Positions 5,359 to 60,304 of a stretch of 64,000 nucleotides of DNA are shown here, piece after piece (the first letter of the stretch is position 1; every line of letters starts with the position of its first letter). The notes under the pieces are model-generated. The model ran no database searches and was not told the origin of the DNA. It saw only the letters and a program-made list of their open reading frames with translations. The translations under genes were made by a program, and so were the position numbers. Origin of the DNA: Escherichia phage ime; the sequence record MN850576.1, one strand, 5' to 3'.

Positions 5359-5435
5359 TGGTCTCCACGGAGTGATTCGAACACTCGACCTCCTGATCCC
5401 AAATCAGGCGCTCTACCAAGCTGAGCTACGCGGAG
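5359..5435 (-). tRNA. tRNA-Pro (anticodon TGG)
   Basis: Manual cloverleaf: C1-G72 acceptor (typical of Pro), D-arm TAGCTCAGCTTGGTAGAGC, anticodon stem CCTGA/TCAGG with loop TTTGGGA, T-loop TTCGAAT, encoded CCA. Confidence 0.85.
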
Positions 5436-5446
5436 TATTTATTATT

Positions 5447-5521
5447 TGGTGGCCCTGGGTGGAATTGAACCACCGTCTGGCGATTATGAGTCGCTTGCTT
5501 GAACCTTCCAGCTACAGGGCC
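5447..5521 (-). tRNA. tRNA-Met (anticodon CAT; elongator-type or Ile-CAT not distinguishable)
   Basis: Manual fold: acceptor GGCCCTG/CAGGGCC, anticodon loop CTCATAA, T-arm GGTGG-TTCAATT-CCACC, encoded CCA; G1-C72 pair argues against initiator. Confidence 0.75.
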
Positions 5522-5522
5522 A

Positions 5523-5598
5523 TGGTGCTGATGGCAGGACTTGAACCTGCAACCTATTGATTACAAATCAATTGCACTACCAATTGTGCTACATCAGC
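5523..5598 (-). tRNA. tRNA-Thr (anticodon TGT)
   Basis: Manual fold: acceptor GCTGATG/CATCAGC, D-stem GCAC/GTGC, anticodon stem ATTGA/TCAAT loop TTTGTAA, T-arm GCAGG-TTCAAGT-CCTGC, CCA. Confidence 0.85.
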
Positions 5599-5603
5599 AA
5601 AAA

Positions 5604-5702
5604 GGTGCTAGGTGATGGAATCGAACCACCTATGTATTCAACGACTACCTCGTCTATTTTCAGGATTAAAAATCCTCGCCCTTGCCAAAGGGCTTACCTA
5701 GC
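5604..5702 (-). tRNA. aberrant tRNA-like element (Lys-TTT-like anticodon arm; about 25-nt insertion in variable region); possible pseudo-tRNA
   Basis: Perfect 7-bp acceptor GCTAGGT/ACCTAGC, D-arm GCCC-TTTGGCAA-GGGC, T-arm GGTGG-TTCGATT-CCATC, anticodon arm AGGA-TTTTTAA-TCCT; about 30 nt between anticodon and T arms; CC but no terminal A encoded. Confidence 0.4.
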
Positions 5703-5800
5703 TCAGTATGTTGACCATGTTGCTAGTCGGCGATGACGACTGTAACATTTGATAATCCGGTTCTGCTTCCGGCTTTCGCTTAATTACAAGGTCAACAATA

Positions 5801-5891
5801 TGGCTGAGGGTAATGGAATCGAACCATCATCAAGTCATCCTCAACGGGACGGTTTTCAAGACCGCTTGAGCACCATTGCTCCCTACCCTCA
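5801..5891 (-). tRNA. tRNA-Ser (anticodon TGA), type II with long variable arm
   Basis: Manual fold: acceptor TGAGGGT/ACCCTCA, anticodon stem GCGGT/ACCGT loop CTTGAAA, long variable arm, T-loop TTCGATT, encoded CCA; 91 nt. Confidence 0.8.
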
Positions 5892-6005
5892 TTTATAAAC
5901 AATACTGATAATGACACTGATTTTCGAGCAGTTAGTGACTAGTATAAACGACGATAAATATCAATGCCATTATCTGTATGATTTATGCATTTAAAACTAT
6001 AAATT

Positions 6006-6092
6006 TGGTGGGGAGTGGTGGAGTCGAACCACCCGAGTCGCAATGACAATAGATTTACAGTCTACACCGCTACCCCTACGGGATAACTCCCC
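6006..6092 (-). tRNA. tRNA-Tyr (anticodon GTA), type II
   Basis: Anticodon arm GTAGA-CTGTAAA-TCTAT, variable arm about 15 nt, T-arm GGTGG-TTCGACT-CCACC, acceptor GGGGAGT/ACTCCCC, CCA; resembles bacterial tRNA-Tyr layout. Confidence 0.8.
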
Positions 6093-6096
6093 AATT

Positions 6097-6171
6097 TGGC
6101 ACCCCGTACTGGACTCGAACCAGTGTCAACGGCTTAGAAGGCCGCTGCTTTATCCACTAAGCTAACAGGGC
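6097..6171 (-). tRNA. tRNA-Arg (anticodon TCT)
   Basis: Acceptor GCCCTGT/ACGGGGT (2 G-U pairs), D-stem GCTT/AAGC, anticodon stem GCGGC/GCCGT loop CTTCTAA, T-arm ACTGG-TTCGAGT-CCAGT, CCA. Confidence 0.8.
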
Positions 6172-6606: not shown

Positions 6607-6950
6607 GTTTCCTCCATTATCACGTGATAGGTGGATTTTATCATAGCAAATACTGATTGTCAAGTTCGCCGCAGGGTGGTATTCCCTGCGACTTGTCCAG
6701 CGTCCTGGACCAGCAAGACCCAACAAGTGGGTTACCAGAGCCCATTACCGCACTTTGGCTCGACCTTATTACAGGTTGGCTGGGGTCACATCGTCATGTG
6801 CTGGCTGCCCCTACCATTTTAAGTGTGGTGCACTATCAAGCCCTCTAAGGGGAACTCAGCCTTCTCCGAACCCTGTTTCAAAGCATCCGGAGATAAAGCC
6901 ATCAAATTCATCTTTAAATTGGATATTCATCATGATACACGAAAACAACC

Positions 6951-7269: not shown

Positions 7270-7479
7270 TCAACAGATTCCTGCCTTATCCTTCCTGTCT
7301 GCGTATTCTTTAATCGCAACCTCATCTGCATTAGTGACCAGGTCTTCAAAGTAACTCTCAAGCTCCTCGTCAATGTCAGGAGACCAGCTCTTTTTCCTGT
7401 CAGTGTGAATTGCAGACTTGTTGAACTTATTACAGTTCTTTGCTACCGGGTTGTTCATTAAGCGCTCCTCAGCGTTCAT
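7270..7479 (-). CDS. hypothetical protein
   Basis: 69-aa ORF, co-directional, overlaps next gene start by 11 nt. Confidence 0.35.
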   Translation of the reverse strand: MNAEERLMNNPVAKNCNKFNKSAIHTDRKKSWSPDIDEELESYFEDLVTNADEVAIKEYADRKDKAGIC

Positions 7480-8047
7480 AGTAAATCTTATTTAACATTA
7501 CCTCATCCTTTGCAGAAAGGATATCAAGATATGCATCACCAAATCTTCCTGCAACAACCTCTGCATGATACATCACTTCGTTAACATCGTCAAGAGTGAT
7601 AACCGGATGACCATATCTTTCTGAATATTGTCTCAGGGTGCGATGTAACGAGTCGTCATCATATGCAGACTTTTTAATATCACAAACACGACGAATAGCC
7701 TTGATGTCGAAAAAACCTGTGCGATACCACCCAAGAAAAAGGTTTCGTGCAGTGTCAACATCTACATTGATACCATCAAGAACCTTATCTACAAGATAGC
7801 TGTCATCCTTTGGACCAGCGTCCTTAGTGCGAATGTAGTTGCCATCTTTTCCAGGCGACATCTCCTTCTCATCCCCAACCTGCATGCCATCATTTGGCGG
7901 TGTTAGCCACTTATCCGGATGCTTACGATCACGAGCGTTAGAATGATTACGCTGGAAACCGGGCTTCCACTTGAAAGTTTTCTCCATCTGTTCTTCATTC
8001 TGATAACGTTTTGCAATCTTTTCACGGTCATCTTTGCGTGAACCCAT
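7469..8047 (-). CDS. hypothetical protein
   Basis: 192-aa ORF; GAGGAGG SD immediately upstream of ATG at 8045-8047. Confidence 0.5.
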   Translation of the reverse strand: MGSRKDDREKIAKRYQNEEQMEKTFKWKPGFQRNHSNARDRKHPDKWLTPPNDGMQVGDEKEMSPGKDGNYIRTKDAGPKDDSYLVDKVLDGINVDVDTARNLFLGWYRTGFFDIKAIRRVCDIKKSAYDDDSLHRTLRQYSERYGHPVITLDDVNEVMYHAEVVAGRFGDAYLDILSAKDEVMLNKIYYER

Positions 8048-8132
8048 AGCTGCCTCCTCTTCAAGTTATAGAAAAACTAACTGTATCGCTTTGTAACGAG
8101 CTTTTCTATCAAACTGGTGCGATTGCATTACC

Positions 8133-8141
8133 TGGTATAGT
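8133..8141 (+). promoter_or_regulatory. candidate extended -10 promoter element (TGGTATAGT)
   Basis: TGnTATAGT matches the extended -10 consensus; sits just upstream of the GC-rich ORF-free island. Confidence 0.3.
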
Positions 8142-8149
8142 TTATATAG

Positions 8150-8450
8150 CTGTGGAGCGATTTAGGGGCCTTCTTGTCAGTTTCCACACATAAACTTCAT
8201 CCAAGCTCGCGCGGGAGACTCTCAACCGACTCCTTACGGCGCTGGCAAGCTTTCGTCGGTGGTCCACATCAGTGCTCGGCCTTTGGCCTGCGCTATCGCT
8301 TCGCTCCCACACATGTTAACAGACCTGTATGTATGAACTTCTGTTATTGTGTGCACCAAAGAGGCCCGGCATCTCGCCCCTCGTAGGCGAGTGCCAATGA
8401 AGGGCCGACACTGCCCATAGTAAGTAATAAATTTAAAACATGGTACTTAG
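8150..8450 (+). ncRNA. candidate non-coding RNA (GC-rich ORF-free island between extended -10 and strong terminator)
   Basis: About 250 bp visibly GC-richer than surroundings; only one RBS-less TTG-initiated ORF; bounded by promoter-like element and hairpin plus T-run; no match to any RNA family I can recognise. Confidence 0.25.
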
Positions 8451-8523
8451 GATCTAGTATATTCTACATAAGTTAAGTATATGTACTTGGTACCATAAGT
8501 ACTAGATCTTTTATTTTTTTTTT
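8451..8523 (+). terminator. rho-independent terminator (plus strand), long-loop hairpin plus T-run
   Basis: GATCTAGTA (8451-8459) pairs with TACTAGATC (8500-8508), followed by TTTTATTTTTTTTTT. Confidence 0.5.
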
Positions 8524-8555
8524 ATTATTTAGTTATTTTAGTTATATTCTTTATG

Positions 8556-8636
8556 TGTCCGTATCACGGACAGTTAGTGTCCGTATTACGGGCAGATGTG
8601 TCCGCGTGACGGACAGTAGTGTCCGTATCACGGACA
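8556..8636. repeat. array of four phased 17-bp palindromes TGTCCGYRTNACGGRCA (operator- or iteron-like)
   Basis: Copies at 8556-8572, 8578-8594, 8599-8615, 8620-8636 (21-22 bp period) plus degenerate fifth copy about 8643-8662; half-sites TGTCCGT / ACGGACA. Confidence 0.8.
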
Positions 8637-8711
8637 GTTAATAGTATCCGTTCCATGGCGAACATAAAACATACGAATCCTTATAGTACAGATATTTAAG
8701 TTTTTACTGGT

Positions 8712-9062
8712 CTAACCAGTTGTTGACATCCGAATAACTTCTTCTGGTGGCAAAACTTTGGAAAATGTGCATCTTTTACCTCTCCCTTGTGTGGATGTCT
8801 CAACCACTCCTGCACATTCTAAAGTTTTAACGCACGCTGCTGCTTTTGTTTTCTTTATCCCAACATCTGCTGCAATTTTCCTTGTGCTTGGTGTGAAGCG
8901 TGAATTTCCTCCAAGCTTATACCAGTTATGCAGGTAGCAGTATACGATCTTGTCATACAAGTCAAGAACAACAACCTCCCCAGTTGTGTCATTCAAAACT
9001 TTTGACATAGATAGTATTTCAAGGGGGACTTTAAGATATAGCAGCTTATCCCCATCTTTCAT
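8712..9062 (-). CDS. putative helix-turn-helix DNA-binding protein
   Basis: 116 aa; C-terminal segment STRKIAADVGIKKTKAAACVKTLECAGVV resembles a winged-HTH recognition region; adjacent to palindrome array. Confidence 0.45.
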   Translation of the reverse strand: MKDGDKLLYLKVPLEILSMSKVLNDTTGEVVVLDLYDKIVYCYLHNWYKLGGNSRFTPSTRKIAADVGIKKTKAAACVKTLECAGVVETSTQGRGKRCTFSKVLPPEEVIRMSTTG

Positions 9063-9671: not shown

Positions 9672-10139
9672 TCATTTAAGTTTAATGCAGTTTTTAAGCT
9701 GGCGTTCCATACGATCCACAACCTTGTCTGGAACATCATGAATGCTTTTATTACCGTGGCGGTTTTCAACCACGATCACGGTATAACTATACCCATGACT
9801 GATTGCCATGTCAACATATTCCTGCACATGTTTTTCTTTTGTAAACGTATTACTTACCACGATACGGTCGTATCCCATACGCATCATATCTTCTACGTTA
9901 TCTTTGCACCATTTTGCTGCGAGTGTTACTTTACTTGCATCCCAGTTGTAATTGCCGTCATCGTCATACCAGAACATGTCGTTCTCAAAATGTGGATACA
10001 GACCCTCTAAAGATAGCGCATTTGCCAGTGTTGATTTGCCAGACCCTGGTAGACCACGCACGATATATAGCATTTTAGACATAGTGACCCTCCGTTTTAA
10101 TTTCAACGGTAGTATACCTAACTGTTTTGTTAATTTCAA
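9672..10139 (-). CDS. P-loop kinase, polynucleotide-kinase-like
   Basis: 155 aa; Walker A GLPGSGKSTLA near N-terminus as in T4 Pnk kinase domain; followed by phosphoesterase gene. Confidence 0.55.
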   Translation of the reverse strand: MKLTKQLGILPLKLKRRVTMSKMLYIVRGLPGSGKSTLANALSLEGLYPHFENDMFWYDDDGNYNWDASKVTLAAKWCKDNVEDMMRMGYDRIVVSNTFTKEKHVQEYVDMAISHGYSYTVIVVENRHGNKSIHDVPDKVVDRMERQLKNCIKLK

Positions 10140-46871: not shown

Positions 46872-47080
46872 TAAACACACATGCATCTGAAGAGACATCC
46901 AAAGGAGTGACTATATGTCCCTTGGCTGAGCCAGTGAAAGAGGAAAACTTAGATTCTGAAGATTCTCCATCTTCGCTCCAGGTAGATCCTGAGGCTGATG
47001 ACCTAACGTGGGAAGACATCGTAGATATCTGGTTCTCTATTATGCCTGAGCACGAAGAGTTCAGGGGTGGTAGACTATGA
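46868..47080 (+). CDS. hypothetical acidic protein
   Basis: 70-aa ORF. Confidence 0.4.
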   Translation: MINTHASEETSKGVTICPLAEPVKEENLDSEDSPSSLQVDPEADDLTWEDIVDIWFSIMPEHEEFRGGRL

Positions 47081-59629: not shown

Positions 59630-60304
59630 CGATTATTTTAAATTATTTTTATGATAGAATCCACCTGCCGCCCCCGCCAGGTTAACCACCATTTTTTCGT
59701 ACTCTTCTTTATGTTCCCGCGCTTCTGTATCATTAATCACTACATTTCCCAGGTGAGTAGCATTACCTTTCATTTTTGTACCTCCTCTTCAATTGTTTAC
59801 CCTACAGCATGGGCCTACCAGGTTTGCAAGATTTCACCCTCTCCCACCTGGTCAGTTAGGTCCTGCCAGGCTGGCCCCGCCAGGTTGCAACGGTTAGCGC
59901 ATCAGGTTAGAAAAATTTTTTGAAAAGGTGTTGACAGCGGCCCCGCCAGGGGGCACAATATACCTATCGAAAGGACGGCAGGCACCGGTGACGGTGGAGA
60001 CAACCACCGGGGATGGGCGCTGCATAAAATGAGAACGGTTATCATTATCATTTAAAAATTTATGCAAAAAATCCTTGCCTTCTTTGTCCTGTGTGATACT
60101 ATAATAACAAGCCGGGGCAACAGGGGCCGGGAGACAATCACCGGGCCTGCCCGTTATTCTGCAAACGAGAATGATTATCATTCAAAATTCTAAATGAGAA
60201 CTCCTCGCATTTAATAAATTTAATTAGCATGCTAATTACCCTCCGTAACAATTTCCTATAAAACAGTATCCCATAAAATATTCCCATATAGAAATTTTAA
60301 AAAT

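Follow-up and report, generated by a model that had tools for sequence, protein, structure and literature searches.

A conserved, non-coding GC-rich island of rV5-like phages has a homologue on capsid-encoding Escherichia coli plasmids and is a candidate structured RNA

The DNA analysed here (the window) is a 64,000-nucleotide (nt) stretch of Escherichia phage ime (sequence record MN850576.1), an rV5-like phage (Vequintavirus). Between an ORF77-like gene (7469-8047, - strand) and an ORF79-like helix-turn-helix (HTH) gene (8712-9062, - strand), in a region where the - strand holds every gene from the tRNA cluster (5359-6171) to position 10139, lies a GC-rich island that an earlier note, made from the sequence alone, had put forward as a candidate structured RNA. 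We confirmed the GC-rich stretch at 8160-8410, which has 55.0% GC against 42.6% for the whole window (z = 3.6) and flanks of 40% (8048-8159) and 22% (8411-8554); this value is reached by 0.06% of 250-nt windows and ties for the highest in 64 kb. Using blastn, we found 118 phage records that match 8050-8560 at 88-100% identity, all of them rV5-like, and the island is present in 118/118 of the Vequintavirus records found. Eighteen records named "Campylobacter phage" (MG0656xx) are near-identical to E. coli rV5-like phages across the locus and are probably mislabelled or contaminant assemblies.

The TTG-initiated open reading frame (ORF) that the earlier note had described as the only one on the island is present (8174-8386, + strand, 70 amino acids (aa)), but short ORFs also lie on the - strand (8142-8312, 8234-8359 and 8316-8411). 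Such ORFs, of 31-70 aa on both strands, would speak for a small or decayed protein-coding gene, and they are labelled hypothetical proteins in some relatives' records, with the rV5 record placing ORF78 here. We therefore counted the variable sites at each codon position in an alignment of about 20 relatives. The neighbouring genes show the excess at third positions (24/17/45 for ORF77 and 3/4/14 for ORF79), whereas the three island ORFs do not (18/21/17, 20/14/20 and 9/7/6). Furthermore, 1-nt indels in P203, ECML-10 and Alma shift the island frames, and the homologue on plasmids, described below, breaks every frame by insertions of 44 and about 60 nt. rV5 and Murica have a common 18-nt deletion, to which Murica adds one of 3 nt. 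Collectively, these patterns of variation show that the island is non-coding. A protein-coding remnant, which the earlier note had named as a possible refutation, is thus ruled against, and we consider a coding gene of any kind extremely improbable.

The degree of conservation points the same way. In a distant relative, the IMG/VR contig L006, whose ORF77 protein is 82% identical, the island carries indels of +3, +1 and -1 nt, and blocks of about 50-100 nt are 92% identical without synonymous wobble. Identity reaches 91.7% in the core 8205-8312 and 92.3% in the core 8358-8410, compared with 81.4% for the ORF77 DNA, 62% for 8131-8204 and 66% for the variable hairpin between the cores. By this comparison the cores are shown to be constrained more strongly than the neighbouring genes. 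The AT hairpin and the iterons of the window have no alignable counterpart in L006, so that the conserved unit is the GC-rich core and not its frame.

The main new finding is a connection to plasmids, which the earlier note had missed together with the adjacent origin-like region. Searching complete E. coli genomes and PLSDB by blastn, we found matches to the cores, about 85% identical, on small circular E. coli plasmids and none on E. coli chromosomes. The plasmid is carried by 7/5,426 genomes at a size of 13.3-13.7 kb, one record being a 39.6-kb trimer, and two metagenome contigs (13.9 and 15.5 kb) belong to this type. The family analysed comprises NZ_CP020521.1 (L020) and its relatives L021, L042, L044 and L049-L053. 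Its genes include those for a major head protein (phrog_29), a Dit-like tail protein, a Neck1/tail-completion protein, a tape measure protein and several HTH proteins; the capsid protein is 22-25% identical to the capsids of 140-150-kb myoviruses, and a 303-aa winged-helix protein matches replication initiators weakly. Neither a terminase nor a portal could be recognised among the plasmid's proteins. Because of this gene content, the plasmids look like a satellite-like element, previously undescribed; in the literature we found nothing relevant on Vequintavirus satellites. Sequence comparison thus shows that the phage element has a homologue in capsid-encoding E. coli plasmids of about 13.5 kb.

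The plasmid has 2.9 kb of non-coding DNA with several iteron types. Over the 4.3 kb that make up its regulatory and non-coding part, the island is the sole sizeable phage match, bar a piece of about 60 nt in the Rep-like gene. The only other phage-plasmid DNA match, of about 67 nt at 80% identity (46878-46943 of the window with 10882-10947 of L020), lies in a short phage ORF (46868-47080, + strand) and, on the plasmid side, in the acidic linker of the Rep-like gene. No homology was found between phage ORF79 and the winged HTH/Rep-like protein of the plasmid.

On the plasmids the element is an array. It starts with a leader, TGCAATTGCA..AGTTAATGCA, GCC[AGAA]GGC and CATTTAGGGGCC, and continues with hairpin modules, each closed by (C)CCACACA (CCCACACA), to which the CCACAY punctuation of the phage corresponds. 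The array ends with a terminator, GCCUAAAGAG..CUCUUUAGGC-UUUCAUUU, and a second terminator, after which come iterons that differ between plasmids. The modules are shuffled like cassettes, with the orders 1-A-B-T, 1-A-B-C-D-T, 1'-A'-B'-T and 1'-A'-C-T, and module type and iteron type assort independently among the plasmids. The phage order is leader, module 1, A'/B-like hairpin region, variable hairpin and 3' hairpin (Table 1). The 18-nt deletion of rV5 and Murica leaves the stem of the variable hairpin in place, and the L020 copy of this hairpin is about 60 nt longer. The 3' hairpin is 92% identical in the distant phage relative, and among the plasmids only L020 has a phage-type copy. No match to the plasmid modules 1', A', B', C, D and E was found in any phage record.

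Table 1. Features of the phage element and of the region 3' of it, in window coordinates
Feature	Position	Strand	Remarks
Near-palindrome TGCGATTGCA	8118-8127		TGCAATTGCA at the corresponding site upstream of the array in all plasmid copies
TGGTATAGT, extended -10-like	8133-8141	+	Sequence
3-bp hairpin GCU[GUGG]AGC	8149-8158	+	GCC[AGAA]GGC in plasmids; CAG[AUGA]CUG in L006, offset by 2 nt
Leader AUUUAGGGGCC	8160-8170	+	Common to all plasmid arrays; G-run variable within the phage genus
CCACAC, first of three CCACAY motifs	8184-8189	+	Others at 8264-8269 and 8307-8312
Module 1	8205-8269	+	Covariance-model match of 103 bits at 8196-8272, sole copy in the window
Hairpin region GUGC-UC-GGCC-UUU-GGCC-U-GCGC plus GCGCUAUCGC	8272-8304	+	Homologous to plasmid modules B and A'
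Variable-length hairpin CACACA...UGUGUG	8308-8353	+	Alignment
3' hairpin, 13 bp, 11-nt loop CCCCUCGUAGG	8363-8406	+	-26 kcal/mol, z = -3.4
AU-rich hairpin, then T-run	8441-8504 and 8509-8523	+	Terminator-like end
AT-rich segment, 22% GC	8411-8554		Composition
Four 21-bp direct repeats GTGTCCGTATCACGGACAGTA, iteron-like	8555-8638		Copy number varies among relatives

Next we examined whether the island folds and whether its pairs are kept. The predicted fold of 8148-8523 beats all 100 shuffles on the + strand (z = -3.47), with z = -2.06 for the - strand. In module 1, 8225-8230 and 8255-8260 form a helix, lengthened by pairing of 8217-8220 with 8261-8264, around a 24-nt loop (8231-8254) that contains an invariant 19-mer. 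The only differences in this loop among all the copies in phages and plasmids are A/C at 8236 and a G-to-A change in phage WM. The stem that carries this loop changes from ACCGAC/GUCGGU in the phages to GCUGCC/GGCAGC in the plasmids, with the double changes A:U to G:C, C:G to U:A and A:U to C:G, and 95.6% of its cells are paired, a level to which no shuffle or slid register is comparable. An alternative, mutually exclusive hairpin (8240-8246 with 8255-8261) is 96% paired, with changes from G-U to G-C and from U-G to U-A, and it is possible that module 1 takes two conformations.

The other hairpins behave in the same manner. The hairpin at 8272-8304 changes from GGCC/GGCC in the phage to AGCC/GGCU in the plasmid, and GUGCC/GGCAC becomes GUGCU/AGCAC among the plasmids. 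The 3' hairpin is 99% paired and differs between phage and L020 by two changes of G:C to U:A, one of them masked by an alignment gap. In total there are at least 7 compensatory base-pair changes between phage and plasmid. The covariation analysis proposed as a check in the earlier note thus finds pairs maintained by double changes, mostly across the one phage-plasmid split, and alignment shows that the hairpins keep their pairing through compensatory substitutions. Taken together with the lack of a third-position excess and the conserved cores, this supports the idea of a non-coding structured RNA.

The strand is best indicated by how the element ends. In the window, a 64-nt AU-rich hairpin (-20 kcal/mol, z = -2.45) is separated by a 4-nt gap from the run TTTTATTTTTTTTTT. 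The hairpin and its 15-nt T-run are as first described, but a consensus scan of 8000-8750, which defines a terminator by at least 3 G-C pairs and a loop of 3-8 nt, did not call them a terminator, and the word "strong" was overstated because the hairpin lies outside this definition. The plasmid arrays end with two canonical terminators in succession on the + strand, and in L006 the element ends on the same strand in yet another hairpin, with a T-rich tail. Three lineages therefore have three different terminator-like ends on the + strand, with no - strand counterpart, and since they close the element on this strand in three ways, the + strand is favoured. We infer that the element is read from the + strand, opposite to all flanking genes.

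At the other end, the extended -10 element, TGGTATAGT, is present, but it has no usable -35 and the same scan found no promoter in 8000-8750; it resembles the late-promoter-like motif TggTAaAAtA of rV5 (PMC3606486). Of the independent transcription unit suggested in the earlier note, the terminator-like + strand end is thus found in three lineages, but the -10 is not conserved. The near-palindrome at the left end of the element is possibly an operator, judging by its recurrence in the plasmids. An RNA that started near 8148 and ran to the T-run at 8523 would have up to about 375 nt, with a core of about 270 nt.

The element immediately adjoins an origin-like region in both phage and plasmid. 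In the phage it is followed on its 3' side by 144 nt of 22% GC, the four 21-bp direct repeats and then the ORF79-like gene, whose protein has matches to HTH_36 and DUF6945 just below the Pfam cut-offs and is named "replication initiation protein" in RefSeq records; the plasmid arrays likewise adjoin iterons. From this arrangement, the adjacent region is probably a replication origin. The number of 21-bp repeats varies, some relatives having three copies; CarlMeissner and JES2013 have each lost one.

Upstream of ORF79, at 9126-9097, is a - strand promoter (P76 in the rV5 annotation), and the consensus scan found neither a - strand terminator nor an ORF77 promoter in 8000-8750. Accordingly, - strand transcription should cross the island, and if it reads through, the complement of the island would be the 5' leader of the ORF77-like gene.

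The island belongs to no described RNA family. We found no gathering-level Rfam 15 match in the island, the plasmid or five plasmid arrays, and at permissive settings (E up to 10) the sole overlap is a 17-bit chance match to rli43 across the AT-rich region. ARAGORN finds no tRNA or tmRNA in the island, all seven tRNA genes lying at 5359-6171, and the earlier statement that it is not tmRNA, RNase P, 6S or SRP RNA is upheld. One tRNA of this cluster (5604-5702, - strand) is 97-99 nt long, with 26 nt inserted behind the anticodon arm; ARAGORN gives it no name, it scores 35.5 bits in Rfam, and it is annotated as tRNA-Lys(UUU) in relatives.

Searches for further copies gave one rV5-like contig only in IMG/VR. 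In phage relatives more distant than L006, reached via the phosphoesterase gene (27-64% identity), we found no match by blastn, nhmmer or covariance model. With a covariance model of module 1, on which true copies score 94-103 bits, 19 matches in genome_contigs to the invariant 19-mer proved to be chance matches in GC-rich bacteria, with 18-23 bits over the 19-mer only.

Three more specific ideas were rejected. A type III antitoxin (ToxI-like or pseudo-ToxI) does not fit, with only two pairs of 8-9-nt direct repeats in the island and with the plasmid array followed by iterons and no gene. tRNA-like RNase P substrates (hairpin-plus-CCA) are not consistent with the spacing between stem and CCA. 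Pairing of the leader GGGG with the CCCC of the 3' loop, of which L020 has five of each, fails because four substitutions in the phage G-run are uncompensated.

A functional structured RNA, on whichever strand, is the likely product of this locus. More specifically, we favour a previously undescribed, modular, structured non-coding RNA transcribed from the + strand, to which we assign a probability of roughly 0.55. Several points weigh against it. Taken by itself, module 1 does not fold better than its shuffles (z = -0.02), and independent covariation events are few because one deep phage/plasmid split supplies most of them. RNAalifold energies are equal for the two strands (-72.6 vs -73.7), and single-sequence energies are mixed between them. 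The -10 of TGGTATAGT reads TATGGT, TAGAGT, TGTAGT or TGCAGT in relatives and CACACAAGT at the aligned place in the plasmids, and we found no conserved promoter for the element in phage or plasmids. In a duplex scan of the conserved loops against the window and the plasmid, no trans target stood out, and we found no Vequintavirus transcriptome in the literature.

The hairpins may instead act as DNA, either as single-stranded hairpins at the origin (priming or primosome assembly) or as a packaging (pac) region of the kind that a satellite needs to take over from its helper. Compensatory change in inverted repeats is equally expected of single-stranded DNA hairpins, and the element lies directly beside AT-rich DNA and iterons in phage and plasmids alike. 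It is also essentially the sole DNA that the plasmid has in common with the phages, which is how mimicry of a helper's pac or cos site looks in P2/P4 and in cos-type islands. Perfect palindromes are frequent among the hairpins, with loops of 3 nt, several of which belong to the GNA type (GTA, GAA) that is very stable in DNA; the terminase gene is about 4 kb away in rV5, and the trimeric plasmid record would fit concatemer packaging. On the other hand, U-tailed terminator hairpins close the array on one strand in three lineages, which implies that the array is transcribed. No two of the palindromes have the same sequence, so that one DNA-binding protein cannot read them, and the independent assortment of modules and iterons argues against a Rep-specific component of the origin. 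Furthermore, no deposited genome starts at the island, the record coordinates being scattered. We consider a DNA-level element unlikely on balance. A functional RNA from the - strand, either the leader of an ORF79-to-ORF77 mRNA or an RNA processed from an operon that ends in the tRNA cluster, would agree with the orientation of the flanking genes, with the promoter upstream of ORF79 and with the absence of a terminator or an ORF77 promoter in between. The - strand folds about as well as the + strand, and two polymorphisms give A-C on the + strand and G-U on the - strand, at 8225:8260 (L006, Aya) and 8318:8345 (B9-1, SYGMH1). Opposed to this are well-defined hairpins with G-U on the + strand (GCCGAC/GUCGGU, module C' of L052 and 8220:8261), the better z-score of 8148-8523 on that strand, and the + strand terminators of the plasmids and terminator-like ends of the phages, for which the - strand has nothing comparable. 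In addition, a strong - strand promoter stands between the plasmid array and the operon, so the array is not the leader of that operon. We regard a - strand RNA as somewhat less probable again than a DNA element.

If the + strand RNA is indeed made, its most likely role would be that of a cis-antisense regulator of the ORF79-to-ORF77 transcript. It would pair with the - strand transcript through the 24-nt loop of module 1, by loop-loop "kissing" with the mirror-image hairpin, and this pairing might control the leader of ORF77 or, alternatively, transcription that crosses the neighbouring origin. The same loop stands on covarying stems in the plasmid, whose copy may for this reason address the same phage transcript and serve as an RNA handle on the presumed helper phage, or the reverse. 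We propose this particular mechanism tentatively, as a possibility with the odds against it. A bolder and still less probable idea is that the element represents a new class of hairpin-cassette RNAs common to the phage genus and the plasmids, in which the 24-nt loop would provide plasmid-phage RNA-RNA recognition and the CCCACACA-ended cassettes would be exchanged to change specificity. Such a class, if real, would be a means of RNA-based helper sensing, interference or counter-interference.

Among known systems, the pseudo-ToxI of Pectobacterium phage PhiTE, reportedly described by Blower and colleagues in 2012 as RNA mimicry of a plasmid-borne type III antitoxin, is likewise a non-coding RNA locus in a large lytic myovirus of the rV5 supergroup, homologous to an RNA array on a host plasmid. 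ToxI, however, consists of tandem identical 36-nt repeats next to toxN, while the island has dissimilar modules, no tandem repeats and no adjoining toxin gene. The CI RNA of P4 and the C4 RNA of P1/P7 are small structured RNAs of a satellite and of phage-plasmids that pair with transcripts through their loops, and the plasmid described here is satellite-like; but their covariance models do not match the island even at E = 5-10, the island is longer and modular, no cis target repeats were found here, and the phage is strictly lytic. The oop RNA of lambda resembles the proposed RNA as a short cis-antisense RNA with its own terminator, directed against an operon and placed beside an initiator gene and origin, but it is 77 nt long, with one terminator hairpin and no elaborate conserved structure, and is not known to have a plasmid or satellite homologue.

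Transcripts that run toward an AT-rich or iteron origin are known from ColE1 (RNA II, which needs a defined fold), T4 (oriE/oriF) and the primary origin of T7. Here, in contrast, a terminator-like structure precedes the iterons, module and iteron types are independent, and there is no similarity in sequence or model. In the sponge RNAs CsrB and RsmZ, too, hairpins follow one another with a short recurring motif and a closing terminator, but GGA stands in their loops, whereas here CCACAY or CCCACACA stands in linkers and has no known binding protein. The ssi signals of G4/phiX174 and of plasmids are clusters of stable hairpins beside an origin, some with GNA triloops, but they work at the level of DNA, are not known to end in transcription terminators, and have no known homology to the island.

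Phages of the rV5 type have been isolated widely, serve in therapy cocktails and have members in the BASEL collection, yet at this locus their records show either a blank or spurious "hypothetical proteins". If there is indeed a conserved structured RNA next to a probable origin, it would be a new regulatory part of these genomes. The plasmid link suggests that a strictly lytic coliphage has a satellite-like element, not described before, and that the two have an RNA or a cis-acting DNA signal in common; if true, this would offer a tractable E. coli system for helper-satellite interplay at the RNA level, for which phages, plasmid-bearing strains and genetics are already available.

Two other GC-rich regions of the window stand apart from this element. 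The region 59781-60030 (55.2% GC) ties for the window maximum, and it may be another non-coding island because it holds only short overlapping ORFs (90-95 aa) on both strands. A further GC-rich, ORF-free island at 6651-6900 (core 6741-6787), between the ORF75-like and ORF74-like genes, has 54% GC, the third highest 250-nt window, and no Rfam match; its similarity to the island studied here is not above shuffles. Within it, a segment of about 43 nt recurs at 85-97% identity in over 1,100 further phage records; it falls in the vs.8-ipIV intergenic region of RB3 and occurs also in phages of Klebsiella, Rheinheimera and Vibrio. The conserved part is followed by different hairpins in RB3 and in the window.

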